Source: Alphaproteobacteria bacterium | GTDB lineage: Bacteria; Pseudomonadota; Alphaproteobacteria; Bin95 | Length of the DNA: 64,000 nucleotides | NCBI GenBank assembly: GCA_963665325.3 | Contig: OZ224045.1 | Location: 416,001 to 480,000, forward strand | Direction: 5' to 3' | Shown here: piece after piece, positions 39,366 to 57,521 of the stretch | Layout of the letters: every line of letters starts with the position of its first letter | Position numbering within the stretch: position 1 is the first letter of the stretch | Translations under genes and position numbers: made by a program | The notes under the pieces: generated by a model | Database searches by the model: none | What the model saw: only the letters and a program-made list of their open reading frames with translations | What the model was told of the DNA's origin: nothing

Positions 39366-39377
39366 GGCCGCCTCCGG

Positions 39378-41738
39378 TCAGAACACATCTTCATTCTCCG
39401 CCAGGCCCGCCTCGACACTGGCGCGGCGCATGACGCGCTCAAGGCGGCGGGTTAACTCGTCTTCGTCGTCCAACGCGGCCCCCTCGATGTGGATTGTCGT
39501 GTGAAAGACGATACTCGCGCCCCGTCCGGCCTCCGTCCGCGTGGAAACCGGCCCAGCGCCAGCGCGCCCCGCCGCCTCATCCTCGTCGCGGCCTGGCGGC
39601 GCGGGCGCTGCCGGCGCCCGCGTGGTCTCGAAATGCTCGGTCAGCGCCTGCACGTCGCCGCGCAGTGCCTTGAGGTCGATCTCGGCGACATCCTCGGGCG
39701 GCGTGGCGGCGCCGGCGCGCGCGTCCTCGAACGTCCTGCCTATCCGGGCCGCCTCCTCCTGCATGGCCGCGTAATCGGACGCGGGGGCCGTCGTCGTAGC
39801 CATATCGCCTGCTTGCGGCGCAGGCGCAGCTGCTACGGCGAGCGGGGCCGCCACGACGCCGGCGGCGAGCGTCCGGCCTACCGCGCCTCTTCCGCGCCTG
39901 CGGCGGCCCGGTCGCCCGGCTGCCGGCGGCGCGTCATCGGCAGTCTCATCCGCGCTGCCGTCGCCGAACCGCCTTCCGATCCATCGCCCGAGCGCCGAGC
40001 CCTTGATGGCGTCGCCGACCTTCTTGATCCATTCCCAGAGCTTCTTGATCTTCTCCCACACCCAGCCGACCGCGTCGCCGATCGGCTCCCAGAGCGCGTA
40101 GATGATCGCGCCGGCGGCGACAAATCCCGCCACGACCAGCCCGACAGGATTGGCCAGCATCGCGGCGTTCACGACCCAGATGCCGGCCGCCAGGGCCGTC
40201 GCGCCGACGGTGAGCAGCCCGAAGCCCAGCGCCAGCGCGCCGATGAGGCGCCCGGCCCAGGGATAGCGCTCGATCAGCTCGGAGACCCGGCCCGCCTGGC
40301 GGGCGAGCCACCCCGTGGTGGCGGTGATCTGCGGCAGCAGCGTGTTGGCGAATATCTCCCCGACCTGCCGCACGTTCTGGCCGAGCATCGTCCACTGCGC
40401 AGCGCCGCCCTTCAGGAACCGTTGATACTCCTCGTCGACCAGGTTGGACTTGCCGGCCTCGACCAGATCGCGTTTGGCGATCGCCATCTTGGAGATCGCC
40501 GGCAGCAGCAGGCTGAAGCCGCGCGACCCTTCCTCGCCGACCGCCTCCTGGATCATCTGCACCAGCGCGTCCTGCTCGCTGATACGGCCGTCGGACGCGT
40601 CCACGAGCTCTTCCAGGCGCATGCGCACGTCGTCGGAGTCGATCGAGTTCTTGAAGTTCTCCAGCGTCCCGACAAGGTCCATCGCGCCGTCTTTCGTGCG
40701 CACGATCCGAAACCCGAACTCTTCGCTCGCCTTGCCCATCGTGCGCAGCATCGCGCGGAAGGCTTCGCCCGCCACCGAGCCCTGCAAGCCTGCGGAGTTG
40801 AGCTGTCCGACCACCGCCGCCATGTCTTCGAGCGGCACCTTCGCGGCGACGGCGGACGCAGAAGCGTATTTCAGTCCCTCGCCGAGCTGGCCGAAATCCC
40901 GGATCTGGTACTGGAATTGCGTCTTGGCCAGCACGTTGCCGATGCGATTCATCTTCTGCTCGACCGTGCCGGCCATGCCCTCGGCCATATTGTTGAAGGT
41001 GATGGCGAATATCTCGCCCACCTGGCCGGCGGCGCCCTTGGTGACCTTCGCAAGCCTGTGCACGCGCTCCTCGGCCGCGTCGACCGCGCCCTCGTTGAAG
41101 CCGGCCGAGTGCAGCGCGTACTGGATGTTGAGCACCTCCTCGTCGCTCGCGAGCGACGTGCGCGAGTACTCGCGGGCGCGGCCCACGGCGCGGCCCACGG
41201 CGGCGTCGCGGTCCGGTCCGGTGACGACGGTGCGGAGATACTGCGCCTGCTCCTCGCGCTCCATCGCCCCGCCGACCATGCGGGCAACGCCGTATCCGGC
41301 GCCGGCGACGCCGAGCATGCGCGCGCGCATGGAACGCAGGACGCCGCCGGCGTGGTCCCGGCGATCCATGCGCCTTTTCTGGGTGGCGATCCGCGCCTCG
41401 GTGCGCCGGAGCTCGGCCTGGAGATCGCGCTGCCGGTCGATGACGTTCCCGACGTTGATGCCGTATTTCTGTGCCGCCTTGCTTGCGCCGGCATAGGCGG
41501 CCTTCGCCTCGGCCAGCATCTTGTCGGCGGAGGCGCCGACCTTTCTATGATGCTCCCGGACCTCGGCGAGCTTGCGCTGGTGCTTGATAAGCCCGCCGGC
41601 GACGCGGAACTCCTGGTCCGTCCGCTTGAAGGTGTCGCCGAGCTGGCGGAGCCGGCCCGTCGCGTCCCTGACGGAGCGGCGGTAGGCCGAGTCTACCCGC
41701 GCGCCGATCCGGAGGCCTACCTCGAGGTCGGCGGCCAT
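39378..41738 (-). CDS. phage tail tape measure protein
   Basis: Ala/Gly-rich helical protein; LG....Y, GLQGS.AG, ANPVGLVV motifs; follows gpE. Confidence 0.9.
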   Translation of the reverse strand: MAADLEVGLRIGARVDSAYRRSVRDATGRLRQLGDTFKRTDQEFRVAGGLIKHQRKLAEVREHHRKVGASADKMLAEAKAAYAGASKAAQKYGINVGNVIDRQRDLQAELRRTEARIATQKRRMDRRDHAGGVLRSMRARMLGVAGAGYGVARMVGGAMEREEQAQYLRTVVTGPDRDAAVGRAVGRAREYSRTSLASDEEVLNIQYALHSAGFNEGAVDAAEERVHRLAKVTKGAAGQVGEIFAITFNNMAEGMAGTVEQKMNRIGNVLAKTQFQYQIRDFGQLGEGLKYASASAVAAKVPLEDMAAVVGQLNSAGLQGSVAGEAFRAMLRTMGKASEEFGFRIVRTKDGAMDLVGTLENFKNSIDSDDVRMRLEELVDASDGRISEQDALVQMIQEAVGEEGSRGFSLLLPAISKMAIAKRDLVEAGKSNLVDEEYQRFLKGGAAQWTMLGQNVRQVGEIFANTLLPQITATTGWLARQAGRVSELIERYPWAGRLIGALALGFGLLTVGATALAAGIWVVNAAMLANPVGLVVAGFVAAGAIIYALWEPIGDAVGWVWEKIKKLWEWIKKVGDAIKGSALGRWIGRRFGDGSADETADDAPPAAGRPGRRRRGRGAVGRTLAAGVVAAPLAVAAAPAPQAGDMATTTAPASDYAAMQEEAARIGRTFEDARAGAATPPEDVAEIDLKALRGDVQALTEHFETTRAPAAPAPPGRDEDEAAGRAGAGPVSTRTEAGRGASIVFHTTIHIEGAALDDEDELTRRLERVMRRASVEAGLAENEDVF

Positions 41739-41741
41739 GCG

Positions 41742-41897
41742 CTAACGCCTCGGGTAGAGCGCCTTCGCCAGACGCCCCGCCTCATCCGTCCACAGCAGAA
41801 GCTCTTCCATGTCCATATCGTCGAGATCCCCGACCGGGATGTGCAGCATGTGCGCGACGAGCGCCATCGCGCGGCGCGTCTCGGAAGGGCTCAGGAC
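41742..41897 (-). CDS. gpE' (GpE family) extension expressed via -1 frameshift
   Basis: MALVAHMLH.P..DLDDM.MEELL.W...A in the -1 frame after TTTTTTG. Confidence 0.75.
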   Translation of the reverse strand, partial: VLSPSETRRAMALVAHMLHIPVGDLDDMDMEELLLWTDEAGRLAKALYPRR

Positions 41898-42136
41898 AAA
41901 AAACGCTGATACACGTCCTGGAGCCGCACATAGTCGGCCATGTCGAGCTCCTCGATCACGTCCGGCGGGACCTCGCACAGGTTCGAGAACATCCGGAACT
42001 CGCTGTCGGCCGCGGAGCCGCCGCCGCGCTGCGCATCGCGCGAGTCCCGCGCCTTCGGGCGGCGCATGGACAGCTCGCTGTATTCCACGCCCTGATGCGT
42101 GACGGGACGCTGGAGCGTGACCGTTTCCTTCTCCAT
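41891..42136 (-). CDS. tail assembly chaperone (gpE/gp41-like)
   Basis: L.MRRPK.RD, NLC, ELDMADY..LQ..Y..FL; GGAGGAAG RBS. Confidence 0.9.
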   Translation of the reverse strand: MEKETVTLQRPVTHQGVEYSELSMRRPKARDSRDAQRGGGSAADSEFRMFSNLCEVPPDVIEELDMADYVRLQDVYQRFLS

Positions 42137-42151
42137 GGGACTTCCTCCTCC

Positions 42152-42655
42152 CTAGATGCCGAGCGCGGCGCGCTGTTCGGCGAGCCGGTCCGTGCCGTTG
42201 ACCATGCGGATCATGTTGTCGACGTCGATCTCGATGAGCGCCTGGCCGTCATGCTCATACTTGTAATAGCGCACGGCCATGGAGCATTTGAGCGGGACCT
42301 TCTCGCCGGTCTTCCAGGTGCCGTAATCGACCTCCTTCAGCTGCCCGCGCAACTGCGCGACGACGGGCGTGACGGCGCCGTCCTCGCTCTCCAGCGCGCC
42401 CCGGACAGTGAGCGGCACCAGATTGCCCGGCGCCAGGCCCCAGGACCGCATCAGCTCGGCGTCGATGTTCGAGGTCGAGAAGTCGGCCTCGAGCTTCTCG
42501 AGGCCCATGTCGATCTCCGCCGGCGCGTCCATGCCGCCGTCCCGGTGCTCCTCCATCTTCACGGTGAGCTTGGGCAAGTTGACCTCCATCACCTGGCCGG
42601 CGTAGCCGCGCCCGTCGACGAACAGGTTCACGTTCTTCAGGACGTTGACGATCAT
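42152..42655 (-). CDS. major tail tube protein (FII)
   Basis: LKN.NLFVDG.GYAG, LPKL, GGMD, EID..N.IR.V.G.D.L. Confidence 0.93.
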   Translation of the reverse strand: MIVNVLKNVNLFVDGRGYAGQVMEVNLPKLTVKMEEHRDGGMDAPAEIDMGLEKLEADFSTSNIDAELMRSWGLAPGNLVPLTVRGALESEDGAVTPVVAQLRGQLKEVDYGTWKTGEKVPLKCSMAVRYYKYEHDGQALIEIDVDNMIRMVNGTDRLAEQRAALGI

Positions 42656-44334
42656 GCCGCTTCCTCCTCATCGGTGTCTTCATCCTCCTCGGCCGCGCCG
42701 AGGATGGTGTCAAGATAGTCGTTGGTGAGCCGCGAGCGGAACGTGACGCGCTCGGCAGGCGGCGGCGGGGTGAAGTCGATATCGAAATACACCCGGCCCG
42801 CCGCGAGCGTATCCGCCGTGTTGAGCTCGGGCGAGGGGATGCAGCTGCCGCCCAGCAGCGCGCCGAGGCCGACGAGCTCGCGGATATAGGCGTTCACGCC
42901 TTCCGCCACATCGTCGAAATAGGTCTTCGTGATGTTGCGGTCGACGGCCCAGAGATGCGAGCGCAGCAGGCTCTCGTTCAGGATGTCGGCAGTGCGCACA
43001 ACCGACAGGAACGCCCACTTGGCGTCGGACGAGCAGGTGCGGTTGCCCCAGAGCCGGTAGCCGCGCTCCCGGATGATGGTCGCGACCTCGCTCTCGTTGA
43101 GTAGGTTCGCGCGCGCGTTCGGATCGCCGAGCGCGAAGTCGATGGGCCTGGCCGTCCCGACGATGCCCCTGATCTGCCGGTTCGACGGGCTCCACCAGAA
43201 GCCCCGCTCGGCATCGCTGCGCGCGATGACGCCGGCGACATAGGCCGAGTTCGGCGCGGAGACCGGATCGCCGCCATCGGGGTCGGCGACCTGGACGTCG
43301 GGGTCAACGAGGTAGGCGCGACGGCTGCCGAACTCCCCGCGATAGCTTATCGCCTGCGAGTCCGTGACGCTGGGTCCCTCGATCGGCGTGACCGCGCGCA
43401 GCCGGTCCGCCGCCGCGATCAGCGCGGCAGCCACGCTCTCCGTGTCGGAGTAGCCGGGCGCGATCAGGATTTTCGGGGTCTGCCCCACGGCGCTCTGGGA
43501 GCCGAGCAACGCGCTCACGCCGGTGTAGGCGTCGGTGCCGGAGTCGACCCCGCCCACGATGTCCGGCGCCGTGATCGCTGCCGCGTCAGGCCGGTCGTAG
43601 GAGATGTTGAGCCACTCGTCGGAGTCGATATCGGCGCCGACTCGCGACAACACGCCGGTGTCGGCATTATACGCGTACTGGCCCGCCGCGCGGGTGACCT
43701 CATCGGCCTCCGGATCGGCGACGCCAGACGCCCAGACGCCGTAAACGACGATGCCGCCCGTGCGGTGCTGAACTTCGGCGTAGGAGTTGGCCCCCGGGGT
43801 GATCGCGACCTTCTCGCGATAGCGCGTGGCGCCGTTCGAGTATTCGACGACGGCGGCATCGGTGAGCGCCGTCCAGACCGTGCTGGCGCTCACCCTCGAA
43901 AGACGGCCCTCGTTGGTTGTGCCCGCGGCGGCGAGCGTATAGTCCGTCGTCTCTACCGCCGCGCCCGAGGCCGGCTCGGATTTCACGACGAGGCTTGCGG
44001 CGTATTTGTGCGCGAGCGTCACGCTGCCGTTCTGCAGCTCGTAGAGCCGCGCGGGTACTGCCGCCTTGTCGACGTCCGGGTCGAGCACGTTGACAACGAC
44101 CACCGCCGCGCCCGTCTGCGCGAAGATCGCCTCGAGCGCGTCCGGGATCGTGCCGACGCCGGCGCCGAAGACCTCGGTGCCCTTGGTGCGCGAGCCCGAG
44201 ATCAGCGTCGGCGTGTTGATCGGCCCCTTCGGCGCCGAGCCGACGAGGCCGATGACGGCGCTCTTGACGGTACGGATCGGGCGCAGGCCCGACTGGATTT
44301 CTACGACTTCAACGCCGTGGAGAAAGTCTGTCAT
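42652..44334 (-). CDS. tail sheath protein (FI) with internal insertion
   Basis: FLHGVEVVE, PKILIAPG, GFWWSPSN, GYRLWGNRT, F.SV.RT.D. Confidence 0.94.
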   Translation of the reverse strand: MTDFLHGVEVVEIQSGLRPIRTVKSAVIGLVGSAPKGPINTPTLISGSRTKGTEVFGAGVGTIPDALEAIFAQTGAAVVVVNVLDPDVDKAAVPARLYELQNGSVTLAHKYAASLVVKSEPASGAAVETTDYTLAAAGTTNEGRLSRVSASTVWTALTDAAVVEYSNGATRYREKVAITPGANSYAEVQHRTGGIVVYGVWASGVADPEADEVTRAAGQYAYNADTGVLSRVGADIDSDEWLNISYDRPDAAAITAPDIVGGVDSGTDAYTGVSALLGSQSAVGQTPKILIAPGYSDTESVAAALIAAADRLRAVTPIEGPSVTDSQAISYRGEFGSRRAYLVDPDVQVADPDGGDPVSAPNSAYVAGVIARSDAERGFWWSPSNRQIRGIVGTARPIDFALGDPNARANLLNESEVATIIRERGYRLWGNRTCSSDAKWAFLSVVRTADILNESLLRSHLWAVDRNITKTYFDDVAEGVNAYIRELVGLGALLGGSCIPSPELNTADTLAAGRVYFDIDFTPPPPAERVTFRSRLTNDYLDTILGAAEEDEDTDEEEAA

Positions 44335-44387
44335 TTGGTGCCTCCTTTGTTTGCCTTAAGCGGACGCCGCTGGTGGCCATCGAGTTC

Positions 44388-46319
44388 CTAGCCTAACGGG
44401 GCGGCCATCAGGTAAGAGCCCTTGCGCAGAGTCAGGGAAACTGGAGCGTTGATGGTTTCAACAGAGTATGTGACTTCCTCCAGCGTGTTCGGCTTGTCGA
44501 CCCAATCCTCGAAGTTTGAGGGGTAGGCACTTCCTTCCCCGAACAGAATGCCGGATGCCGGGTCAATCAGCGTTGTGGAGTTTCGTTTCAATCGGAGGCT
44601 GCCGCCGTGGCTTCCGGTAAACATTGCAAGTACATTCAACTTGATTGCCGAGTCCATTCTCGGCGGCGTGATGGATACCGACAAAACGGTTCCAATCGCG
44701 GTCACCGCCTCGTCGGCGGCCTTGATATCGGCCTTTACCGAGTCCGGCATAACAAACGCCGTTATCGACGAACCGGGGAGAATTTGCCGGTCATACCGTG
44801 CGTCCGTCTCCTTCGCCTGCATCTTGTAAGTCGGCGTTCCCGCGCCCGGCTTGTCCAGCAGCAGTTGGCGGCGCCAAGCAACCCCGTCCTCGTGATCCCA
44901 GCGGAATTCAGGGGCGATGTCTGTATTTCCCCGCCGGAAGCGAACCACCGCAGGATAAGGCGGCGCAGTGCGACGGCTGGCCCCAATACTCGTCAGCAAC
45001 CCCACGATTTGATCGGCCTTTACAGCGCCGGACATCTGGCCGCTGATTGCATCCGCCCATCCCAGCGTAAGGTTCAGGGCAGCGGTGCGGCTAAAAAAAG
45101 AAATGCTCCCTACCCCCCCTGCCGCGATGGCCGCTTTCATCCCCGCCGGCGTCACTGCCCTTTCGCTGTCGGTTCCGGTGATCACCTCGGCATTTGTCGC
45201 CAGCTCGACGATGCCGCGCACCGATGTCGACGCGTTCGGGACCCGCGCCGCCAGCCCGGCCGGCGTCACGGCGCGCTCGGTATCGGTGCCGGTCTTTGCC
45301 TCGGTAGTGGTGGCGAGCTCGACGAGCCCGCGTACCGACGCCGACGCGTTCGGGGTGCGCCCTGCCAGCCCCGCCGGCGTGACGGCCCGCGCGCTGTCGG
45401 TGCCGGTCTTTGCCTCGGTCGCGGTCGCCAACTCGACGACGCCCTTCCGGCTCGTGGTCGCCGTGCGCGAGGCGAGCCCGGCCGGCGTCACGGCCCGCTC
45501 GGTATCGGTGCCGGTCTGAACCTCCGTGTTGGTGGCAAGCTCCACCAGGCCGCGCCGCGTGGTCGTGGCATTGGGCGGGGCGGCAGAGGCGGGGATCTGG
45601 CCGATCCGCGCCTCCAGCCCGGCCGGCGTCACGGCGCGCTCGGTATCGGTGCCGGTCTGAACCTCCGTGTTGGTGGCAAGCTCCACCAGGCCGCGCCGCG
45701 TGGTCGTGGCATTGGGCGGGGCGGCAGAGGCGGGGATCTGGCCGATCCGCGCCTCCAGCCCGGCCGGCGTCACGGCGCGCTCGGTATCGGTGCCGGTACG
45801 CGCCTCGGTAGTGGTGGCGAGCTCGACTATGCCGCGCGCTTCCGTCGTCGCGTGATCCGTTTTCAGCACCACATTGTCCGGCACGCCGACGGAGATGTTG
45901 ACCGCCGGCGTGACGGTGATGGCGGCGCTCGAGGCCTCGATCGCGATGAGGCCGGCGACGATGAGCGCCGTGTCTGCAGCCGCGCTGGCGAGCGCGCCGT
46001 TCGCGTCCTCCGCGACCCAATAGGCCGCGAGGAACTCGGCGCCGGCGCCGATCCGCGCGAACAGGCCGGCCTCGGTAACGATGAAGTTCTCGGTCGGGCT
46101 GTAGTCGGCGCGGATGGCGATGCGCGTGTCTCCGCTCGCCTGGCCGGTGACGTCCGCGATCGCCTTCTGGTCGATCAGCGCGGTCCGCGCCGACTGGTCG
46201 CCCGTTCCGGTGCCGGCGCCGACGGCGAGCTTCGTGAACCGGACCGCCGACGTGCCGATATTGGAGGCGTCCGCGATCGCGGCGAGGCCGGCGGCCGTCA
46301 TGGCGAGATGCATGGTCAT
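44388..46319 (-). CDS. tail fibre protein
   Basis: P2 gpH-like N-terminus (T.AG...., E.GLF), repeated 'ATT..RG.VELAT..E..TGTD..RAVTPAGL' units, divergent C-terminal domain. Confidence 0.88.
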   Translation of the reverse strand: MTMHLAMTAAGLAAIADASNIGTSAVRFTKLAVGAGTGTGDQSARTALIDQKAIADVTGQASGDTRIAIRADYSPTENFIVTEAGLFARIGAGAEFLAAYWVAEDANGALASAAADTALIVAGLIAIEASSAAITVTPAVNISVGVPDNVVLKTDHATTEARGIVELATTTEARTGTDTERAVTPAGLEARIGQIPASAAPPNATTTRRGLVELATNTEVQTGTDTERAVTPAGLEARIGQIPASAAPPNATTTRRGLVELATNTEVQTGTDTERAVTPAGLASRTATTSRKGVVELATATEAKTGTDSARAVTPAGLAGRTPNASASVRGLVELATTTEAKTGTDTERAVTPAGLAARVPNASTSVRGIVELATNAEVITGTDSERAVTPAGMKAAIAAGGVGSISFFSRTAALNLTLGWADAISGQMSGAVKADQIVGLLTSIGASRRTAPPYPAVVRFRRGNTDIAPEFRWDHEDGVAWRRQLLLDKPGAGTPTYKMQAKETDARYDRQILPGSSITAFVMPDSVKADIKAADEAVTAIGTVLSVSITPPRMDSAIKLNVLAMFTGSHGGSLRLKRNSTTLIDPASGILFGEGSAYPSNFEDWVDKPNTLEEVTYSVETINAPVSLTLRKGSYLMAAPLG

Positions 46320-46864
46320 GCTGCACCCTCGTTGATCGTGAGCGCGATGTCGGCGACCTGGACGCCCGCGGAAGCCACTCCGACGCCGATGACCGTAGTG
46401 CCGAGCGAGGAAGCCACGGACAGCAGGTAGTGCGTCGAGAACCGCTTGGCGTCGTCGATATATTCCTTGATGGCGGCGGTGTCGGTCGTGCCGAGCAGCG
46501 TGTTGGAGTTCAGTATCGAGACGGCGATCGTGTGCGCGGCCCCTTCCGGGCGCTCGCTCAGATCGTAGACCGCACCGATATCGTCGAGCGCGCGGCGAAC
46601 CGCAGCGAGCGTGCCGCGCCGGCGGTGCGTTTCGAGCGCCCGGCGCACCACGCCGCGCTGCACCGCTTCGGGCCATGTCGGGTCCCAGCGTTTCACGCCG
46701 AGCCCCCAGGCCAGCCAGGGCAGCGCTTGGACAGGGCACTCACCGGGCCGCCATAGCTTGTCGACCGGCACCTCGCGTTCATCGACGTCGCCGTACCGCG
46801 CCATCGACTGCTCAAGCGCGCCCTCGATCGGCGAGGCATTGGGCGGAAGGAGCGCTACCGCCAT
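46316..46864 (-). CDS. phage tail protein I
   Basis: LLPPNA, LW.P..CP...LPWLAW, W...WPE, H.R.GT...VR. Confidence 0.92.
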   Translation of the reverse strand: MAVALLPPNASPIEGALEQSMARYGDVDEREVPVDKLWRPGECPVQALPWLAWGLGVKRWDPTWPEAVQRGVVRRALETHRRRGTLAAVRRALDDIGAVYDLSERPEGAAHTIAVSILNSNTLLGTTDTAAIKEYIDDAKRFSTHYLLSVASSLGTTVIGVGVASAGVQVADIALTINEGAA

Positions 46865-46865
46865 G

Positions 46866-47840
46866 TCAGCCCACCGTCACGGCAAGGCCGTCCGCCGGCG
46901 CGGTGGCCGGGTTCCGGTAGCCGTGCATTCCGCCCGAGAGATCCTCCGCGCCGGCGCCGCCCGCTATCGAGTCGACCTGCGCCGGCCAGAGCGCCGCCAC
47001 GTTCCGCCAGGCCGTCGGCGCCGCCGCGATCTCGGTCGGGCCGAGCTTGTCGTGCGCCAGCTTCGTCGATCCCCAGTAGAAGTCGGCAGTCGCGCTTATC
47101 ACGCCGGGGACATGGGCGGCGCCCAGGACGGCGCTCTTGTAGATCGTGGCGCCGACCCGGTGCCGGTCGAGCAGGTAGGCGAGGATGGCGCGCTCGGCGG
47201 CGGCCTGGACCAGCGTCCTGTCCGGGCCGTCGCCAACGGTGAGCGCGACCTGCAGCTGGTAGACGATGTTCCGCGCCGCGAGCACCGTCACCGCATCGGT
47301 GAGCGGGCGGACGCTGGCGCTGGAAAGCGCGGCAAGGACCCTGGCGACCAGCGCCGCGCCCGGAAGCCCGTCGGCATTGTCGCCGCCGATCAGGACGAGC
47401 TGGACCGTGCCGGCCGTGTCGGAGGTGATATCGACGCTCTTGACGCGCGGATCGGCCGAGAGCGCGTGGAACTCGTAGCCGCCCCTCGGCCCGGCGACGG
47501 AGAGCGCCTCGAGCGACAGCCGGAAGCGCTGCAACAGGCGCTCGTCGCTCTCTGCCGCCTGGCGCACCACGCCATTCAGCGCGACCAGATGCTCGAGGTC
47601 CGCGCCGCGGGCGAAGGCGAGAATGTTCGCCTTGGCCGCCTCGTTGATGCGGTTGCGCAGCAGCAGCTCGCGGTAGGCGGCGACCTCCAGCAGCTTCAGC
47701 GCCGGGTCGCTCTCGACCCAGGCCGTATAGTCCGTGTAGCGGCCCCGGAAGTCCGCCACGATCTCCGCCAGGATCGTCTCGAAATCCAGCGGCTCGACGA
47801 CGGTCGGCGCGGGCAGCTGCGAGAGGTCGATCTCGGGCAT
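46866..47840 (-). CDS. baseplate J protein
   Basis: IDLSQLPAP.VVE.LDFE, ESDP..KLLE..AYRE, SVAGP...Y..HALSAD, RPLTD.V. Confidence 0.94.
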   Translation of the reverse strand: MPEIDLSQLPAPTVVEPLDFETILAEIVADFRGRYTDYTAWVESDPALKLLEVAAYRELLLRNRINEAAKANILAFARGADLEHLVALNGVVRQAAESDERLLQRFRLSLEALSVAGPRGGYEFHALSADPRVKSVDITSDTAGTVQLVLIGGDNADGLPGAALVARVLAALSSASVRPLTDAVTVLAARNIVYQLQVALTVGDGPDRTLVQAAAERAILAYLLDRHRVGATIYKSAVLGAAHVPGVISATADFYWGSTKLAHDKLGPTEIAAAPTAWRNVAALWPAQVDSIAGGAGAEDLSGGMHGYRNPATAPADGLAVTVG

Positions 47841-48178
47841 CAGACGGTGACTCCATCGACGGTGACCGGGGTGCCCTCCGGCAGGCGCTCGCCGTCGAGG
47901 TCGAGCGAGACCTGCCCGCCGGCAGTGGCGGCGGCGACCCGGACCCGGAGCAGGCGGAACCGCGGCTCCCAGCGGTCGAGCGCCTCCGCCGAGGCCGCCA
48001 CGATCGCGGCGATCGTTTCGGCGTTCAGCGGCGCGTCGACGAGCTCGAACAGGCGCGAGCCGTAGGTGCGGCGCATCACCCGCGAGCCGAGCGGCGTGGT
48101 GAGGACGTCGCGCACGGACTGGCGCAGATGCGCCTCGCCGCTCGTCCTCAGCCCCGTCTGTGCGTCGATGCCCCGCAT
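47840..48178 (-). CDS. baseplate wedge protein gpW/gp25
   Basis: HLRQSV.D.LTTP.GSRVMRR.YGS, WEPR. Confidence 0.94.
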   Translation of the reverse strand: MRGIDAQTGLRTSGEAHLRQSVRDVLTTPLGSRVMRRTYGSRLFELVDAPLNAETIAAIVAASAEALDRWEPRFRLLRVRVAAATAGGQVSLDLDGERLPEGTPVTVDGVTV

Positions 48179-48184
48179 GGCGCG

Positions 48185-48367
48185 TTATCCCTTCTTCCGC
48201 CGCGTGCGCGCAGGCGGGGCTTCTTCGGTTTCCTCGCGCCCGATCCAGCCCCGGATGAGCGGGTATTTCGCGGCCCGCGCGCTGAGCGTCAGCCGGTCGC
48301 CCTCGCGCAAGGGGCGCGGGTGGCCGGTGATCACACAGTCTTTAAGCACGATGTAATCATTCTTCAT
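48185..48367 (-). CDS. small hypothetical phage protein
   Basis: MKNDYIVLKD...GD.L.L....AKY; AAGGA RBS; fills the gap in the operon. Confidence 0.6.
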   Translation of the reverse strand: MKNDYIVLKDCVITGHPRPLREGDRLTLSARAAKYPLIRGWIGREETEEAPPARTRRKKG

Positions 48368-48380
48368 AAACGGGTTCCTT

Positions 48381-49337
48381 TCAGCCGCGGGTGAAGGTGA
48401 ATGTGGCCGCGACGTTGCGGCGCGAGGAGATGGCGTTGAAGAATGTCTGCAGCGCCGCCGAGTTGTCCGGGACCCACGAATAAGGCTCCGAGGTATCGGC
48501 GCCGCCGATGCCGGACACGGTGACGCTGCCGAACTCGGTGGCGATGGTGAGCGAGATCTCGCCGCGCACGTCGGCGAGGAGGTCGTTCCGCCCTCTGCCG
48601 ATGTCGATCTGCAGCGCCCCGCCGAGCACGGCCGCATCGATCCGCACACTGAGCAGGCGCAGGTCGGCCCCAGGGGCGCCCCACGCGGGCGGGAGCGCGC
48701 CGAATGTGCCATTCCACGACACCAGGAACCCCGGCGCGGCGACGTAGGCTGAGCCGGGCGCGGTGAGGATGGCCTCGTCGGCCCGCGGCGTGCCCGTCAC
48801 GGCCGCCGACGGCGCCCCGTCGCCGGCGGTTGCCCGGGTGGCGATCACGCGCACCGTGTATTCGGTGCCGATGACCAGGTCCGGGATCGTCCAGGACGTC
48901 CCGGTCACCACGGCCTGACGGGCCGCATCCCAGTCCTGGTCGCCGGACTTCCACTGCACCTTGTAGCTGTCGGCGAGCTGCACGGCGTCCCACGACACCG
49001 CGAGCGCGCCCGTCACGGGCGTCACCGTTGGCGCGGACACCCGGCCCGGAGGCACATCCGGGTCGACCGGCGTAACGGTGATGGTGACGCCGGTACTCGA
49101 TACCGCTCCGTGCCCGCAGGTGGCGGAATCGCCCTGGATGACGATCGGCACGCCGTTGATATTCGTGCTCGGCGACGCGGTCATGCTTGCGGAGCAGTGC
49201 ACGGGCACGCGGGGGCAGGGCGGGTGCGATGCGACGGCGTCGCCGCGCAGCGCCACCGGGACGCCGCCGATCGTCGTCGCCGCGCTTGCCATGATCGCGC
49301 CGCCCGCGACATCGCCCCTGACGCATACCTGGCTCAC
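48381..49337 (-). CDS. PAAR-like spike-tip protein fused to a fibronectin type III domain and an unknown C-terminal domain
   Basis: V.VRGD.AGG, G.PVA..GD.V.SH..C..H, INGVP....GD.ATCGH; then VSW.AV..A.SYKVQWKSG...TIPDL..GTEYTVRVIA; GTG overlaps gpV stop. Confidence 0.82.
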   Translation of the reverse strand: MSQVCVRGDVAGGAIMASAATTIGGVPVALRGDAVASHPPCPRVPVHCSASMTASPSTNINGVPIVIQGDSATCGHGAVSSTGVTITVTPVDPDVPPGRVSAPTVTPVTGALAVSWDAVQLADSYKVQWKSGDQDWDAARQAVVTGTSWTIPDLVIGTEYTVRVIATRATAGDGAPSAAVTGTPRADEAILTAPGSAYVAAPGFLVSWNGTFGALPPAWGAPGADLRLLSVRIDAAVLGGALQIDIGRGRNDLLADVRGEISLTIATEFGSVTVSGIGGADTSEPYSWVPDNSAALQTFFNAISSRRNVAATFTFTRG

Positions 49338-49816
49338 GGGATCGTCACCGTCTCGGACGCACCGGAGAGCACGATGGTCCCGGCGGAGATCCGCACGGCG
49401 CTGCCGGCGGGCAGCGCGATCCTGTAGACATGGTTCTCCCGGTCGTACTCGAACAGCGCGCCGTCGGCGTGCCTGGTCACTCGCTTGTCCGGGTCGCTCG
49501 CGGGCGCGGCGTGCGCGTCGCTGTAGAGCGCCGGCAGCGCGAGCGCCTGGTTGAGCTCGCCGGACGGCGCCAGCAGCACGACCTGCTCGCCGATGTCGGG
49601 CGCCCACCAGTTCCGGTCGTCGCCGGCGCGGGCGACCACCCACGGAATCGGGGCGGTGAGGACGGGCGCCCCCGCCTCGTCGACGTCGTAGCAAACGCGT
49701 ATCCGGTAGCCCTCGGCGTCGAGCTCGGCGACGGTGCCGCTCCGGACCACGTTGGCCAGCCGCCGCGCCAGCTCCACCAGGTCGAAGCCCTCCTCGGTGC
49801 GGCGGCGGTCATACAT
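49334..49816 (-). CDS. baseplate assembly protein V (spike)
   Basis: N.VR.GTV, PW...RAG....W.P..GEQV.LL.PSG, DGA..EYD. Confidence 0.9.
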   Translation of the reverse strand: MYDRRRTEEGFDLVELARRLANVVRSGTVAELDAEGYRIRVCYDVDEAGAPVLTAPIPWVVARAGDDRNWWAPDIGEQVVLLAPSGELNQALALPALYSDAHAAPASDPDKRVTRHADGALFEYDRENHVYRIALPAGSAVRISAGTIVLSGASETVTIP

Positions 49817-50472
49817 CAGCCGGCCCTCCGCAGCGGCAACGGCCCCTCGTCGTTGACATCGACGCAGAGCACGTCGGGCGTCTCCGCCGGGCACGGCTCG
49901 GGCTCGACGCCCCGCACCAGGCGGCCGGTCCGGTATTCGTCCTGCCACCAGGCCCGTCCGGAGCCGTCGTCGATCGCGACCATGCGCCCGCGTGCGAGCA
50001 CCAGCGGCCGCCACCGCGCGGCATCGGTGGCGCGCTCGTCCGGACCCGGCCCCAGCAGCCGTATCGTCGTGGCGTCGGCGCGCACCAGCGTGCGGCCGAC
50101 ATTCTCGCCCTCGGGCGACCAGCCGAGCAGCGCGCCGCGCACATCGCCGATCAGCTGCTGCAGCAAATCAAGGGTCTCGCCGCTGCGGTCACCCTTGCGC
50201 CCGCCCGGATCGTTCACCGCGTCGACGCCGCAGGCCACCGCGACGGTCGTGGCGTGGCGCTGCACCACCCGCTCGTCATCGTCCGTATCGAGCGGCGCCT
50301 CGAACTCGTCGGCCAGCACCAGCACGCCGACGGCCGGCCCGCGCGGCATGGTCCGCCGCGCGCCGGACAGATCCAGTATGCTGTAAACGCAGCGCAGGCC
50401 GAGCGGCGGCGCGGCAAGGCGCGCCCGGACAAGATTGGCCAGGCCCAGCGAGGATCGCGGCGCGGTCGTCAC
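49816..50472 (-). CDS. Mu gp37-like tail terminator/neck protein
   Basis: VR.ALLGW.P, WW.D.Y motifs; position between gp36 and gpV. Confidence 0.65.
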   Translation of the reverse strand: MTTAPRSSLGLANLVRARLAAPPLGLRCVYSILDLSGARRTMPRGPAVGVLVLADEFEAPLDTDDDERVVQRHATTVAVACGVDAVNDPGGRKGDRSGETLDLLQQLIGDVRGALLGWSPEGENVGRTLVRADATTIRLLGPGPDERATDAARWRPLVLARGRMVAIDDGSGRAWWQDEYRTGRLVRGVEPEPCPAETPDVLCVDVNDEGPLPLRRAG

Positions 50473-50914: not shown

Positions 50915-50998
50915 CTACAGCGCCCCCCGGTTCGCCCAGCCGCACAGGCCGCCGGCCACCGCCAGCGTGAGCAGGATTATGACGGCCCACTGCAGCAT
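50915..50998 (-). CDS. 27-aa hydrophobic peptide
   Basis: [27 protein letters not shown] exactly fills the gap between overlapping neighbours. Confidence 0.4.
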   Translation of the reverse strand: MLQWAVIILLTLAVAGGLCGWANRGAL

Positions 50999-52026
50999 CA
51001 GATGATAGTCACCACGACCGGATCGACAGGGCCGCCGTCGGCCGGGACCCAGTGAGTGCCGGCAACCGGCTGCCACTCGACGGTCAGCTGCCGGTTCAAA
51101 GGCGCCCGTTTCTCCCATTCGACCACGACATTGCCATCCTCGATCGAGACGCTCAGTCCGGCGAACCGGCCCCGGTCGAGGGCCTTGTGCCCGCCGGCGA
51201 TCTGCACCTTGCCCTTGCCGGCCCACGTCTCGGGCCGCAGGAACTCGACCTGCCCGTCTTCGACCGCGCCCTTGAGCACGAGCTCGCCCTTCTCGGGGTC
51301 ATCCGCCGTCGTCTGCCGCACTGGCGCTGCGCCAGCATCCGGCTCCCCGTAGGGCCATTGGAACCTGCTGCCGCCGCCGGAGCCGTGGTCGTCCCGCCAG
51401 CGCACCCAGAAGACCAGGCCGGGAGCCGGCTCGATGCCGTGATCGCGGAGGTCGAGCGTTCCCTTGCCGCCATCGACGGAAATGAACTTGACGATCCCCT
51501 GCCGGTATGTGTCCAGCCAGCCGTCAACGCTCCGGTCGAACCAGTTGCAGACGACAATCGTAAAGCGCGTGTAGAGGCAGTCGAGGAACGGGTGGTGCGT
51601 CTCCCAGGAGACGATCGGGCCGTCGGCAGAGATCGTCCCTTCCGTGCGTATCCACGCGATCATGGGGTTGTATTTCGACCGGGGCCTCCGCTGCCCCAGC
51701 CCGTCGCAAAGGTCCATGACCCTGCCCCGCAGAGGCTCCGGCAGTCCCCTGATCTGCGAACGGACATGCGCCCAGCCCGACGGCCGGGTCATGCTGTTGT
51801 AGGCCCCGCGCAGGCAGATACCGCCCTTGCCTGCCTTCTGGAAGATGGAGGTGATCCCGCCGTCGTAGCCGCCGCCAGAGCCTTCGCCGCTCATGCGCAT
51901 GTCCGCGACCTGGTAGTGGAACGCCTCCCAGCAGGTCTCTTCGAGCTGGATTTGCCAGGGATCGGCCAGCCCGTCGATATAGGCGCGCCAGTCGGCGACG
52001 GGCTGCATGTGCATCAGGTCGATCAT
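50998..52026 (-). CDS. hypothetical protein
   Basis: 342 aa, host-like codon usage, ATGA overlap with rubredoxin-fusion gene. Confidence 0.7.
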
Positions 52027-52652
52027 TCCACTTCCTCCATCGCGAAGGACGACTTGGCCGCGCCGCAATCGGGGCACTTCCAGTCGTCCGGCACGTCCTT
52101 CCAGCGGGTGAACGGCGGGATGCCCTCGTCCGGCCAGCCCCTGGTCTCGTCGTATACGAGGCCGCAGGCCGCGCACTTCCAGCGCTTGAAGACGATCTCG
52201 CCGCCCGTCAGTTCAGGCGTCCGGTGCACGAAGTTGGCCAGCCCGGCGATGTTGCCGTTCTGGTCGACCTGGAATGCGACCTCCATCGGGAGATCGGAAT
52301 CGCTCCCGAGGTAGAACCAGCGGCGGTTCTTCGCCTCGACCGGGACCAGCAGCGGGATCGTCGTGCCGGGCTCCGGTCCGATCTGCATGTCGAGGACGTG
52401 GCGGGCCACGTCGTCCCTGTCGAGTACGACCAGGACCGGCTGTTGCTCGTGCAGCGCCCGGATCAGTGACACGTCGCCCCGCTTGAACTGCGCCAGGAAC
52501 GCCTCGGCCTGGACATGCGACCGGATGGCTCCGGCCGCCGTGTTCGCGGGCTCGCCGAGCGCCTTGCGGCACTTATCGGCAGTGTCCGTGCCGACGTGGG
52601 CGACGCCTTGCAGCTTGGGCAGGTCTTGATCGGTGAGGTTGAGGATGCGCAT
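52023..52652 (-). CDS. hypothetical protein with C-terminal rubredoxin domain
   Basis: [48 protein letters not shown], a complete rubredoxin signature; AGGAG RBS. Confidence 0.88.
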
Positions 52653-52683
52653 TCCGTCTCCTATCGAGCGCTGTAAACCGTCA

Positions 52684-55272
52684 TTATGGATTGACCACTC
52701 GTTGCACCAGTGCGCCGAACGCATTGCGCCGGCGCGAGAAAGCCATCGCATACGACTGAATGCCGGGGTGGAAGAAGTTGTCGGTTGCAGGAACGTTTAC
52801 TGCCGGGCTGCTGTTCAGCCGATCGAACCGAGCATCTGTCGCGTTCCAACGATACAAGTGACCGTCGGTGCCAAGGCCGAGCAGGACATTCCAGACGCCG
52901 GACCAGGCGAGCCTGTAAATCGGCGCGCCTGCGTTGGCTGTCAATTCGCTGACGCTGTCGTCTGCAAGATCGATTTCAAACAACTGGCCGCCCTGCGCGA
53001 CGGCCCAAAGTCGCTCCGAAGAGGCGGCAAGACCAGAAATCCAATCCGTGTCGGTGTAGGAGCGGTCCAGCACCAGCCGCCCGATCGCTCCGGTTTCCAG
53101 ATTGAGTTCGTGGATGGTGTTATTGCTTGCTATGGACGACAGGTAAGCCGCCGAGCCGTCGTTGGCGATGGTGAAACTTTCCGGCGTAAGGTTGCCCCAT
53201 CCCGCGCCGACGCGCTCCGCCACTCCTGTGTCGCTGTCGAACCTGAACAGGCCGCTCAGCGCCCCCGGAGTGGTTCTTGCGGCAGCGACAATATAAGCCT
53301 GCCCCGTGATCGGGTGCCAGGCCAGCCCGGTGATGTAGACGTTCGCCTGGAGCACAAAGGAGTCGTTGCGATACGGCAACCGCCGCAGTTCGTTATTGCC
53401 GTTGAAATCCCGGTAACGGAACCCCTTTATTCGACGGTTCCAGAACCCGAACTCGGCCCCTGCCAGGTGCAGCGCCTCGCTCAACTCCGTCTCGGCCAGG
53501 TCAAGCGTGTCTTCCCGGTCTTCGCGGGAATCGAAGTCGAACGGAACTGTGGTCTCCGGCTCCTCGGGCAGTTGCGTGCCGTCTGTGCCAGGGATGAGGC
53601 TGAGAGTGACCAAAGCGGTCGACGCCGAGACCAGGTGGTTCAGGGTGTGGAAGTCCGCGAAGGCGACTTCGATTTCCTTCGTGACGTCATCCAGTGTGAC
53701 GGTGACGTGCTCTACCGTGCCCCCGGCGAAGTCCGTCCTGACCGCCGCTCCGACCGTTGCGCCGATGGCATTGGTCGGCAGAATGTCATTCTCGTTGCCC
53801 GTCAGCGTCACATGGCCGGCAAAGGGCCGCTCTCCATTGTGGTCCCATGCCTCAATCACCGCCGCGATACTGGCGAGCGGGTCCGCTGCAATCACCGTGA
53901 GCGAGAACGTGTTCGTTGCCGGATCGTAACCGAACGACAGCGGTTCCCGCGCGCTGGTCGTTGCCGCCGAACCGCCGCTGAAAGCGTAGTTGCCGTGGCG
54001 CAACCAGCCGATGGCTTCATTTCCGCTTGAGTTCCACCGTCTCGCGGTGATCAGCTGGTTGCCGTTATGCCGCGCACGGTTAATTGCGGCGACGAGGTTG
54101 TCCACGGTGTAGTTCAGCGACGTGGTCAGGGTCGCGGAAAAGCCGCTCGTGTAGGTCAGCGCTGGAGGTGTATCGCGCTCTACGGTCTGGACGTCTATCC
54201 GAAAGGCATTCCCAGGCTCGCCTGCGGAGTCCACGCCTATTTCGATACCCGCACCCTGACCGCTCGCCTGAATACGCACGCTCGCATTTTGCGCGGCACG
54301 GCTGGTCGCCGGGTTTCCTCGGACTACAGCCAGATCGTAGATGTTCGGGTCGATCCCGTGGCCGGCGAAGGCTGGCGGAAGAGTGAGCCGCAGCCTATTG
54401 GCCGCGTTCCTGCCTGCCAGCGTGACGGTGGAGGGAGTGTAGCTGGGGAGCGATTTTGTCAGCAGCTTCCAGGCGTGATCCGCTTGCCCGGAATGGACAC
54501 GGACGCCGCGATTTACGTTCTCGCGGGAACGGATGTATGCCACTCCTCCGCGTGACAGTTCGGACTGAATCCGTTCGGAGAACCTGCCGTCGAATTCACC
54601 GCGAAAGACCGACTGCCCGATGTGCACGGCGGATGAGGTGAGCTGCAACAGCAGCAGGGTCACATCTCCGAGCGTGTCAGGGTCCCAGTAATAGTCCCAC
54701 ACCTCATCCACGCTGGCGCCCAGATATTGGAAATTCGTCAGCAGGTCGTAGTAGGACTGTCCGGGCGCGCCCTGGATGTCGACGCGCGCCTGCCTGGGGT
54801 CCACACCGGCCCGGACCCGCACGGCGATCCGTCCATCCAGGCCGGAATCCAGGCTGACCGCATACGAGGCGGCTCGGGCCTGTGCCAGGTTCCAGTTGCC
54901 GGTCCGAAGCGCAATCCCACCCTCGGAACCGTCGACGAGCGCATCCGTCCAGCCCGTTGCCGGCGGGGGCGCGTGCAGGTCGGAGGTGCGGTTCTGGAGG
55001 CTGGAAATCTGCTTTTCAACGGCCTCCGCGTCCCCGCTGTAGGGCAGGTCTCTGGCCTCGTAGCCATCGCCATCCGCATTGCCGACGAGCGGCTTGCCCG
55101 CGTTCCGGGTTGTCGGTTGAGGTATTTCCTGGCGCAGCACGTCCGCACGGTCGAGCGTGTTCCGCACGCCCCCGTCGAGCTGGGTCTTCGCAAGTTCCCC
55201 GTCAATCGCGGGCGCGTCGATCAGCTTGCCGTCTGCACGGGTCGATCTGATCTTGTCGGGAAAGTCCGTCAT
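52684..55272 (-). CDS. large hypothetical virion-associated protein, possible C-terminal beta-propeller
   Basis: 862 aa; repeated 'I.GLA/PESF...Y....LF..D..TG' blade-like units; lower GC. Confidence 0.65.
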
Positions 55273-57521
55273 GACGCGGCCCCGTAGGTGATCGTGTAGA
55301 CGTAGGAGCCGGTGCCGACGATGGCGGCGTTCTGCGCGGCGTTGGAGCGGTAGACGTAGTGCGAGACGCCGTTGAAGTTCCGGTCGTTGAGCCTGGTGAA
55401 GGCGTCCAGCACGTTCGTCGGGTTGCCCGGCACGGTCAGGCCGGTCGGCAGGCCCTGATTCTTGGGCACAGCCCACCAAACCCAGCCGTTATCCGACTCC
55501 GCCGGCACGGTGAGCGTGTCGTCGGTCTGGGGCTGTGCCGCGTTGAACTCCGCATTTGTCGGCTGTGCGGCGGCCGACCAGCCGATGTAGCGATTGTGCG
55601 TGGCCGGAGCGCGCGCCGGCGAGCCGACGCCGTGGTCGATCTGGTAGCTCCTCGTTTGGACGTTGTCCCAGGACAGGCTCTGGAGGGTCCAGGGATCGAA
55701 GTTGCCGCGATTGTCGCGGCCCCTGATCTTGATCTTGTAGGTGATGGCGACCGGGCCGAGCAGGTCGGCCTCCGTAATCTCCACGTCGTCGGAGCCGTCG
55801 GCGTTCCCGCCGGGCGGGCGGTAGGTGCCGACGGAAATGCCGGAGACCGAGCTGAAGCCGCCGAGGGAGAACGTCGTGTCGACGTTTTTCGTCCACGGGG
55901 TCGGGACCATCCGCGTATGCACGATCTCCTTCCCGTTGAAGGTATGCGTCGTCTCCAGCTCAACCAGCATGATGTGGATCGCGTTCGTCCCCGAGCCCGA
56001 CCAGTTTCCGTTGATGATGAAATTCCCGAACCACTCGGTCGCGAAATCCACCCCGCTCCAGACGCGCCCGGCGATGCTCGTCGAGTCCATCAGCGTGAAC
56101 TCGATGCCCGCAGCGGTCACCGCCTGGTCGGCCGAGATCGTGGCCGGCGTCGTCAAGGCCGGGCGCGCGTAGAAGAGATAGCCGCCGGTCGGCAGATTGA
56201 AGTTCCGGGGGCCGATCTTGAGGCGGTTGAGCAGCCCGCCGTCGGCGCCGTCCGGGTTCGCCTCGACCGGCGTGCCGCCGGCGACCGGCCGGTAAGCCTC
56301 GACCCACCCGTCGGACCCGGCGTGGTCGGGCCCGGCGATCAGCAGCTCGCCCGACGCCGTCTTCTGGACGCTTACCTTGCCGGCCGTGGTCGCGAAGTCG
56401 CGCGCCCAGCGCGTGCCGCTTACCGCGTCGCCGACGCTCGCTTCCGTCAGCCCGTTGTACTCCGCTCCGCGCATCGCGAAGTAGTGCGGAGCGTCGTCAT
56501 CGCCCGGGATCGCGATGCGCAGATAGATCACGTCGTCGGCCTGCATCGCCGGCGGGGTGATACCGGTGGCTTTCAGCGTCGCCGCGAACGTGACGTCGCC
56601 GCGTGCCCCGATCTGGCGGAGCTGGAACGAACCGCCGATCCCGGCGACCGGGATGTCGACCGGGTCGGTTCCGCTCCGCCGCGTGAAGGTGAGCTCGCCG
56701 CCTTCCGCCGAAACGCCGACCACCGCGTCGCCGTCCCGGTTGGCGAGGATGGTCTGGATGACGCGCTCCAGCGTCCAGACGCGCCGCTGCCGCGCCGTGG
56801 GGGCGTCGATAGCCGCCTCGGCCTCGGGCTGGGTTACGGTCGGCAGGAACCGCGCCGCGATCGCCGCGAACGCCTCCACATCGTCGACCAGCCAGACCTT
56901 CACCTCGCGAGAGGTGTTGTCGGGCTGCCTGATGAGCAGATGGCGGCTCGCGTTCGAGTAGATCGTCACGCCGTCGAGCGTGTGCCCGTCCGCCTCCCGC
57001 AGCGCCGATATATCGTCGCCGGAGAAGAACTCCAGGCCCGCCGCCACAGTAATGAGATAGACGACGTTGCCGTCGTTGAGCAGCGTGAAATCGCCGATCC
57101 GCTGCTCGGTCGATACCGCAGACGACACGCCGTCGTGCAGCAGCTCCATCAGGCTATCGCGGATATCGGACGCCGCCGCCGCGCCGATGGCGGCGCGAAC
57201 CGCTGCCTCCTGCCGCCCGGTAAGCGTGCCGGGCGGGTTCACGAACGCCTCTTCGCCCCTTTCCGCTGCCGTGCCGGGGATGTTGCCGAGCTTCGTCTTT
57301 TCAGCCGCCGTGAATGGCCTGGTGAACAGGCCGACCAGGGCCAGGATGCGCGCCGCCGCCCAGCCCAGAACTGTCGTGCCGCCGACGTCGCCCGCCTGGC
57401 CCGCCGTCGCCGCGCGCACGCCGCCGAGCCTCGTCTGTGTGGCTTGCGGGAGCGTATAGTCGGAGGTGCCGCCGGGCGCCGTTCCGGTGCCGGCTCCGCC
57501 GCCACGACGCCTGGCCGGCAT
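55269..57521 (-). CDS. large hypothetical fibre/decoration-like protein
   Basis: 750 aa; N-terminal YTLPQAT.TRLGGV motif typical of phage fibres; beta-rich C-terminus. Confidence 0.65.
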   Translation of the reverse strand: MPARRRGGGAGTGTAPGGTSDYTLPQATQTRLGGVRAATAGQAGDVGGTTVLGWAAARILALVGLFTRPFTAAEKTKLGNIPGTAAERGEEAFVNPPGTLTGRQEAAVRAAIGAAAASDIRDSLMELLHDGVSSAVSTEQRIGDFTLLNDGNVVYLITVAAGLEFFSGDDISALREADGHTLDGVTIYSNASRHLLIRQPDNTSREVKVWLVDDVEAFAAIAARFLPTVTQPEAEAAIDAPTARQRRVWTLERVIQTILANRDGDAVVGVSAEGGELTFTRRSGTDPVDIPVAGIGGSFQLRQIGARGDVTFAATLKATGITPPAMQADDVIYLRIAIPGDDDAPHYFAMRGAEYNGLTEASVGDAVSGTRWARDFATTAGKVSVQKTASGELLIAGPDHAGSDGWVEAYRPVAGGTPVEANPDGADGGLLNRLKIGPRNFNLPTGGYLFYARPALTTPATISADQAVTAAGIEFTLMDSTSIAGRVWSGVDFATEWFGNFIINGNWSGSGTNAIHIMLVELETTHTFNGKEIVHTRMVPTPWTKNVDTTFSLGGFSSVSGISVGTYRPPGGNADGSDDVEITEADLLGPVAITYKIKIRGRDNRGNFDPWTLQSLSWDNVQTRSYQIDHGVGSPARAPATHNRYIGWSAAAQPTNAEFNAAQPQTDDTLTVPAESDNGWVWWAVPKNQGLPTGLTVPGNPTNVLDAFTRLNDRNFNGVSHYVYRSNAAQNAAIVGTGSYVYTITYGAAS

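Follow-up and report, generated by a model that had tools for sequence, protein, structure and literature searches.

What does an adhesin-type FN3 domain do on the puncturing tip of a contractile phage tail? The question is raised by a gene in a 64,000-nucleotide (nt) stretch of DNA from an Alphaproteobacteria bacterium (assembly GCA_963665325.3, contig OZ224045.1, positions 416,001 to 480,000), which we call the window and number from its first letter. The gene belongs to a Mu-like prophage and directly follows that of the central spike protein gpV. The usual view of a phage PAAR tip is of an undecorated cone that sharpens the spike, with host recognition left to fibres and tailspikes. An initial annotation, made by inspection of the window, had proposed here a PAAR tip fused to an FN3 domain and a further stretch of unclassified sequence; its coordinates and domain calls proved exact, and the locus is one 318-codon gene directly after gpV. 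The product is very probably a structural spike-tip protein of the prophage. On balance, and by a modest degree, we favour reading the whole as a single-copy adhesion or receptor module made of a PAAR cone, an FN3 spacer and a C-terminal domain (CTD) that binds.

Translation would begin at a GTG (49337) that shares bases with the TGA stop of gpV, the overlap reading GTGA. This start was preferred over an internal ATG because 11 full-length homologues (316-326 residues, 46-74% identity) align with it from the first residues ("M..CVRGDLAGGAI"), with C5 invariant. Across the 12 family members 63 columns are invariant, and they are spread over all three domains.

The N-terminal part matched Pfam PAAR_motif (PF05488) over residues 12-75 with 33.2 bits against a cut-off of 27, and with 36.1 bits in the genome search. 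A profile of the 12-member family matched the solved phiKZ gp163.1, a "PAAR-repeat central spike tip protein" (6p1z_D; query 3-85, E 2.3e-7), as well as type VI secretion system (T6SS) PAAR structures (4jiv_D, E 1.8e-6; 4jiw_D, E 2e-5). The PAAR family profile also matched UpfC of phage P1 (9vyi_A, E 2.2e-4). Five residues of this part (C5, H38, C41, H47 and C74) were invariant in 12/12 sequences, which bears out the His/Cys pattern seen at first inspection and makes them candidates for the metal (Zn) site expected near the apex of a PAAR cone. PAAR residues 1-95 (alignment A1) were modelled together with three copies of gpV (alignment A3) in 3 runs, with 3 controls. The results showed scores of 0.87, 0.87 and 0.88 for the complex and of 0.03, 0.00 and 0.00 for the controls; contacts agreed to at least 87% between runs, and the confidence of the partner (predicted local distance difference test, pLDDT) was at least 85 (86-93). 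In the calibration of the tool, the mark was reached by 116/157 solved complexes versus 2/215 mismatched pairs. Each of the PAAR segments 19-25, 56-62 and 82-92 met its own gpV copy at that protein's final strand (151-160), and these predicted contacts are those of the canonical capping geometry. It is prediction, then, that supports a PAAR cap seated on the gpV trimer. Together, the Pfam match above cut-off, the profile matches to solved tips and the capping model uphold the PAAR-fold N-terminus directly after gpV.

The spike itself fits a separate cap. Its match to NCBIfam TIGR01644 (phage_P2_V) covered profile positions 1-141 of 192 only, and because the match stops there, the protein would be without the apex of a P2-type gpV. 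The genome (5.58 Mb, rated 100% complete) held one PAAR match and one Phage_base_V match, the latter being the prophage's own gpV. In the protein database, gpV relatives ranged from 155 to 235 residues; this range and the short form found here suggest that apex-bearing and PAAR-capped spikes alternate within the phage group.

The middle part matched Pfam fn3 (PF00041) over residues 96-182 with 34.6 bits against a cut-off of 25. Its model (residues 96-186) superposed on FN3 folds at Z 12-14.7 with a root-mean-square deviation (rmsd) of 1.5-2 Å, including 3f7q_A at Z 14.7 and 1.6 Å over 90 residues, so the FN3 module called at the outset is real. It also matched PHROGs for major tail proteins and the central tail fibre J (phrog_4971, 7440 and 31). 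The host genome gave 62 fn3 matches, all of them, save that in the tip gene itself, in open frames of 1072-5574 residues. Six host FN3s were 48-55% identical to the phage FN3; contigs C4 and C5 carry them, in three giant frames. Three weaker matches on contig C1 showed 31-37% identity. The giant frames (2485-5574 residues; C4:217158-227627, C4:910384-927105 and C5:162475-169929; loci L093-L095) combine Calx-beta, cadherin-like, LRR, SWM_repeat and fn3 domains. Among species genomes, 219 stretches encoded relatives of the FN3, and 63 loci were kept (41-63% identity, in the FN3 region only). Their metagenome-assembled genomes (MAGs) are labelled Latescibacterota, Binatia, Azotimanducaceae, Rariloculaceae, Foliamicus, Thermodesulfobacteriota and others. 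The likeness to adhesin-type FN3s proposed at the outset thus held against both the six domains in giant host frames and the arrays in many MAGs.

A quick maximum-likelihood tree was built from 126 FN3 pieces, of which the phage family supplied 12, the host genome 11 and other loci 103. Each foreign locus was limited to its 2 best pieces and each host locus to 6; pieces had to cover at least 80 profile positions, and duplicates were dropped. The results showed 11/12 phage-family FN3s in one clade, with a support of 97 in the Shimodaira-Hasegawa-like approximate likelihood-ratio test; the twelfth (P0013) stood elsewhere on a long branch with weak support. The host's own closest FN3s fell in a different subclade. 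The backbone was unresolved, and no donor could be named. From these sequences we conclude that the PAAR-FN3-CTD fusion is probably old within the family and that its FN3 appears to come from an adhesin-type pool.

The remainder of the protein had been described as about 110 residues of unknown beta-rich sequence. Its beta-rich character stood; its length did not, for it spans about 130 residues and is a distinct modular domain in the model. No family in Pfam, PHROG or NCBIfam matched residues 187-318. The CTD was modelled separately (alignment A2) because FN3 matches swamped fold searches with the whole model, and alone it gave a pLDDT of 89.7 and a predicted template modelling score of 0.85, with a mostly beta structure of ten strands and two helices. 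In alignment A2, W23, G55, G94, D96, E99, Y101, W103, P105, N107 and T127 were invariant in 15/15 sequences; the loop G-x-D-x-x-E-P-Y-x-W-x-P-x-N, read from this alignment, is the signature of the CTD family. A phmmer search with the CTD against 1.84 billion representative proteins returned 54 at E<=1e-3, this protein included, and a CTD profile, built from alignment A2, confirmed 50 of the 53 others (P0029, P0031 and P0057 failed). One copy was present in 23 of these 50, including stand-alone proteins of 120-180 residues, and 2-5 copies in 27. A Pfam scan of 33 CTD proteins placed the domain N-terminal to DUF1833 in 4; in 3 it occurred with He_PIG Ig-like domains and in 1 with SWM_repeat. In a PHROG scan of 13 CTD proteins, the 4 with DUF1833 matched phrog_396 ("minor tail protein"), 1 matched phrog_2048 ("tail protein") and 8 were unmatched; the DUF1833 part of P0030 matched proteins that are annotated as minor tail proteins in phages of Xanthomonas, Stenotrophomonas and Vibrio. 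The CTD is a separate homology family without a prior name, fused also to siphophage minor-tail proteins. Since it is found by itself, as tandem copies and at the tip of more than one kind of tail (two in all), it is better read as a probable binding or adhesion domain than as an enzyme.

Exactly one CTD was found in the host genome, in the tip gene, and none in 60 relatives; of 400 genomes sampled from the class, one had a match, which was marginal (E 9e-4). Two CTD-DUF1833 proteins, P0038 and P0030, found no match when used to scan IMG/VR, and the ESM Atlas gave no usable match to the CTD.

The complete PAAR-FN3-CTD architecture is rare. Among 5.8 billion protein clusters, 25 proteins matched at E<=1e-3, 12 of them full-length (this one included) and 13 in the FN3 only, and the PAAR part used alone as query returned only 8 proteins (174-557 residues), all of the same family. 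The only match in 50,697 cultured-phage records ran through the stand-alone PAAR gene of the Pseudomonas jumbo phage HPP-Temi, and the only IMG/VR locus (L065) encodes an 86-residue stand-alone PAAR between the spike gene and gpW; both agree with the expectation that phage PAARs stand alone. The fused architecture was absent from the cultured-phage records and from IMG/VR, which, with 11 relatives in the clusters, means that it is not already common in phages. JGI metagenome contigs yielded 4 loci with FN3-only matches, and the ESM Atlas, searched with the whole protein, yielded FN3 clusters only (score 0.80) and no PAAR+FN3 cluster. Relatives of gpV numbered 74 at E<=1e-10, against 12 proteins with the PAAR-FN3-CTD tip. 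A literature search, judged mostly at abstract level, found no published description of a PAAR-FN3 phage protein. FN3 and PAAR occur as unrelated mentions in the available portion of PMC4310352, and the main text of the PAAR survey PMC8651086 contains neither "fibronectin" nor "fn3", although its supplements could list such architectures.

Contigs from sequencing runs X1, X4 and X5 (two studies) held the stretch or identical pieces of it; X1 may be the run from which the window derives, and no RNA run was listed among the holders. In run X6, labelled "sponge metagenome", one 230-nt contig was identical to 48657-48886, the FN3-CTD junction. In run X4 a 1763-nt contig (record 10) was about 84% identical over 48457-48641 (29 differences in 185 nt) at a depth above that of the exact copy; a diverged CTD-bearing relative thus coexists in the X4 material. 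As evidence of habitat, the runs are thin: one short contig from one study.

The arrangement that we favour is as follows. The N-terminal PAAR cone would seat the protein, presumably in one copy per virion, on the blunt end of the gpV trimer and would replace the apex that P2-type gpV carries itself. From the cone's base the chain would run along a short linker rich in Pro into the FN3, probably a rigid spacer, and then into the 130-residue CTD, a putative portable binding module held out beside the needle point. The ligand would be a component of the bacterial envelope, either a surface glycan or protein, or a periplasmic component met after puncture; we put this forward tentatively, as a target that falls a little short of an even chance. 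Recognition or anchoring would thereby be placed exactly where the spike penetrates. Precedents in T4 and P1 make a functional tip plausible: the T4 gp5C-gp5.4 spike tip contacts periplasmic PpiD, according to the available text of PMC7600766, and the PAAR-type tip UpfC of P1 carries an extra "tripod" protein, UpfB, according to that of PMC12810830.

Several points weigh against this arrangement. The gpV-PAAR pass may reflect memory, for this is a textbook pair with solved relatives, and the predicted complex would then express likeness rather than proof; modelled by AlphaFold2 as a monomer, the PAAR part came out poorly (pLDDT about 30), and it took the gpV trimer as a partner for this part to fold with confidence. 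For the CTD, the best PDB hit by VIA-align (DUF371, Z 5.1) lay below the level that is common for unrelated folds with this tool, as did TRAF/MATH-like rows at Z of about 4. Foldseek found no PDB match to the CTD at E<=0.001, and the best BFVD match had E 0.053; the BFVD matches, which were uncharacterised proteins from Vibrio phage River4, Burkholderia phage BcepIL02 and Ralstonia phage RSF1, were not taken as evidence. Because no structural relative was significant, the binding role is argued from architecture only. The CTD was absent from cultured phages (tblastn, E<=1, 50,697 records), and its back-translated motif had 0 matches in IMG/VR. Adjacency to gpV in the homologues was deduced from contigs of equal size: for 5 gpV relatives, the longest contig had the same size as that of a PAAR-FN3-CTD homologue (856610, 10709, 7302, 7249732 and 35375), which suggests but does not prove that the genes are neighbours. 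Receptor-binding proteins are not usually found as a single copy beneath the baseplate, and the phage also encodes a tail fibre of the conventional kind.

Many of the FN3 and Ig-like domains of phage tails are structural, and the extension might accordingly serve inside the virion, folding back on the baseplate as part of a hub, plug or wedge and stabilising or gauging the pre-contraction state with no outside binding. The single copy adjoining baseplate genes would fit this, as would the small possible baseplate ORF (open reading frame; phrog_13870) directly downstream and the P1 tripod, whose function is unproven in the accessible part of PMC12810830. A baseplate-specific fit is nevertheless hard to square with the presence of the CTD in tandem arrays, in PHROG-unmatched proteins (8/13 scanned) and in unrelated siphophage tail proteins. 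Moreover, because the 74 gpV relatives far outnumber the 12 tip proteins, the extension looks accessory. An internal structural role is therefore unlikely, though it deserves to be kept in view.

Decorations of the capsid or tail tube number from tens to hundreds per virion, and against that standard one copy at a partly hidden site would give little avidity to a virion that used FN3-CTD for tying itself to the mucus or extracellular matrix of an animal housing the bacterial host, as mucus-adhering phages do. Such animal-facing adhesion draws on the FN3 subfamily shared with the host's giant Calx-beta/cadherin-like/LRR/SWM proteins and many MAGs, and on the 230-nt "sponge metagenome" contig that matches the FN3-CTD junction. 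It also draws on PMC11706023, whose available text counts fn3, cadherin, LRR and Calx-beta among eukaryotic-like domains enriched in sponge-symbiotic Actinobacteriota. The fusion of the CTD to siphophage tail-tip proteins points instead to contact with bacteria, and the habitat evidence is confined to that one contig; we consider this role improbable. A bolder version is, if anything, slightly less probable: a phage in an animal-associated (probably sponge-associated) bacterium would have taken up a "eukaryotic-like" FN3 out of the adhesins of symbionts, and its needle tip, with the FN3 and the new binding domain, would engage animal matrix or cells besides or instead of the bacterium. Sponge symbionts have ankyrin-carrying phages, and an animal-engaging tip, if true, would be their structural-protein counterpart.

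About as improbable as that version is an injected cargo, by which the extension would be driven into the target cell on the spike and act inside it, with peptidoglycan or an inner-membrane factor for DNA entry as examples of a target. C-terminally extended PAAR proteins are the rule in T6SS effector delivery (PMC8651086, in the text accessible), and the spike tip is first into the periplasm, where that of T4 meets its partner (PMC7600766, likewise). The extension had no enzyme or toxin family match in Pfam, PHROG or NCBIfam, and the 2-5 tandem CTD copies in 27 proteins are typical of structural or adhesive modules. The downstream 60-residue ORF is weakly baseplate-like and unlike an immunity gene, and the T6SS PAAR model NF033420 scored 29.5 bits against a cut-off of 124. 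A search for the T6SS sheath (VipB/TssC) gave no match in the genome, which is rated 100% complete. The protein is not of the T6SS effector class, and the "T6SS-style" cargo suggested by the initial annotation found no support, with no toxin or enzyme signature in the extension and no sheath gene in the genome. Finally, a non-functional gene (a decaying fusion, or a mis-called ORF of the spurious long kind that GC-rich DNA produces here in numbers) is scarcely credible given an unbroken frame with its start translationally coupled to gpV, same-length homologues (n=11) conserved through all three domains, an otherwise complete prophage and identical pieces in the contigs of other sequencing runs.

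The spike-tip reading extends known kinds of protein, namely extended PAAR proteins and the Ig-like decorations of phage tails. T4 gp5.4, phiKZ gp163.1 (6p1z) and P1 UpfC (9vyi) are likewise PAAR cones on a trimeric spike, encoded by a gene adjoining the spike gene; these stand-alone tips have about 86-97 residues and no extension, whereas here 230 residues (FN3 and CTD) are fused C-terminally. P1, as presented in the accessible text of PMC12810830, is also a temperate myophage whose PAAR-type tip bears extra distal mass. There the mass is a separate protein, UpfB, attached non-covalently as three trimeric "tripods", whereas here a single chain carries the FN3 and the beta domain covalently; no sequence relation between UpfB and the extension was seen. 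With the specialised PAARs of T6SS and extracellular contractile injection systems, described in the available part of PMC8651086, the protein shares the plan of a PAAR with a C-terminal extension and the tip as carrier. It differs from them in standing among phage head, portal and transposition genes, without a T6SS sheath gene, and in an extension that is no toxin. P2 and Mu have the same P2-type V-W-J-I baseplate module, and gpV here matches TIGR01644; P2 gpV and Mu gp45 have a built-in apex, whereas here a short gpV and a separate PAAR gene form the tip. Major tail proteins, lambda J-type central fibres and Hoc also display Ig-like or FN3 domains on the virion; those decorations sit on capsid, tail tube and fibres in many copies, whereas here the FN3 is on the PAAR tip.

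The surrounding element looks like a complete transposable prophage of the Mu-like kind, and its contractile tail is P2-type (Table 1), in keeping with the temperate phage first proposed. All genes of the tail module lie on the minus strand, in the order terminator, gpV, PAAR-FN3-CTD, 60-residue ORF, gpW, gpJ, gpI, fibre, sheath, tube, tape measure, gpX and gpD. The Mu-type head genes (gpT, protease I and gp36) are on the higher-coordinate side of the tail module. Just past the window follow Portal_Mu, terminase, lysozyme, GemA, an MT-A70 methylase, Phage-MuB_C (MuB) and Mu-transpos_C with rve (MuA).

Table 1. Positions in the window of the tip gene, its domains and neighbouring tail genes
Feature	Position	Strand	Basis
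Whole PAAR-FN3-CTD gene	48381..49337	(-)	318 aa + TGA stop, single open frame
PAAR cap domain, residues 1-90	49068..49337	(-)	Pfam PAAR_motif, PDB profile matches and predicted complex
FN3 domain, residues 96-186	48780..49052	(-)	Pfam fn3; pLDDT >90; 3f7q_A
CTD, residues 187-318, ~130 aa, unnamed beta-sandwich-like module	48384..48779	(-)	motif G-x-D-x-x-E-P-Y-x-W-x-P-x-N
gpV central spike, 160 aa, OB-fold + short beta-helix	49334..49816	(-)	Phage_base_V 51.2 bits; TIGR01644 112.8 bits
60-aa ORF, possibly baseplate protein	48185..48367	(-)	phrog_13870 "baseplate protein" E 7.3e-5; no Pfam/NCBIfam family
gpW/gp25 baseplate wedge	47840..48178	(-)	Pfam GPW_gp25, 64.4 bits
gpJ baseplate protein	46866..47840	(-)	Pfam Baseplate_J, 95.7 bits
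gpI tail protein	46316..46864	(-)	Pfam Tail_P2_I, 114.9 bits
Tail fibre gene	44388-46739	(-)	repeated matches to fibre and collar-fibre PHROGs; weak match to the middle domain of T4 gp12

Other features of the prophage were recorded alongside. The tail fibre gene is internally repetitive, with 5-6 tandem copies of a 108-141 nt unit at 45138-45888. Between the Mu-type head genes and the tail module, at 50998-57521 (-), lie four large ORFs (392, 242, 931 and 750 residues), an unusual cargo for this position; they have no Pfam or PHROG family, but the 242-residue ORF ends in a rubredoxin domain (69.7 bits). The MT-A70-type methyltransferase gene stands beside GemA in the early region (L092 8897-9940; G000:C1:488897-489940, minus). 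Just past the gpD end of the tail module is a reverse-transcriptase gene (34986-35939, minus; RVT_1 72.9 bits; phrog_1423 E 8.4e-59). A diversity-generating retroelement aimed at the tail genes was considered, but 33000-50000 contained no template/variable repeat pair of at least 40 nt and so showed no sign of one. Inside a family-less ORF between gpD and the reverse-transcriptase gene (36254-37198), a perfect tandem array at 36788-37050 comprises 32.9 copies of the 8-nt unit ATCGCCGG with 100% matches; because the period is not a multiple of three, a change in copy number would shift the frame.

For the biology of these phages, a covalently decorated tip would show that phages, like the T6SS, use the PAAR protein as a carrier, and it would place a recognition or anchoring function at the puncture point; the fused design probably lets the needle tip itself grip a surface. 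As the CTD is common to myophage and siphophage tail tips and to multi-copy proteins, it may represent a kind of adhesion or receptor-binding domain that is new for phages. The FN3, for its part, ties phage structural genes to the "eukaryotic-like" adhesin domain pool of host-associated bacteria.

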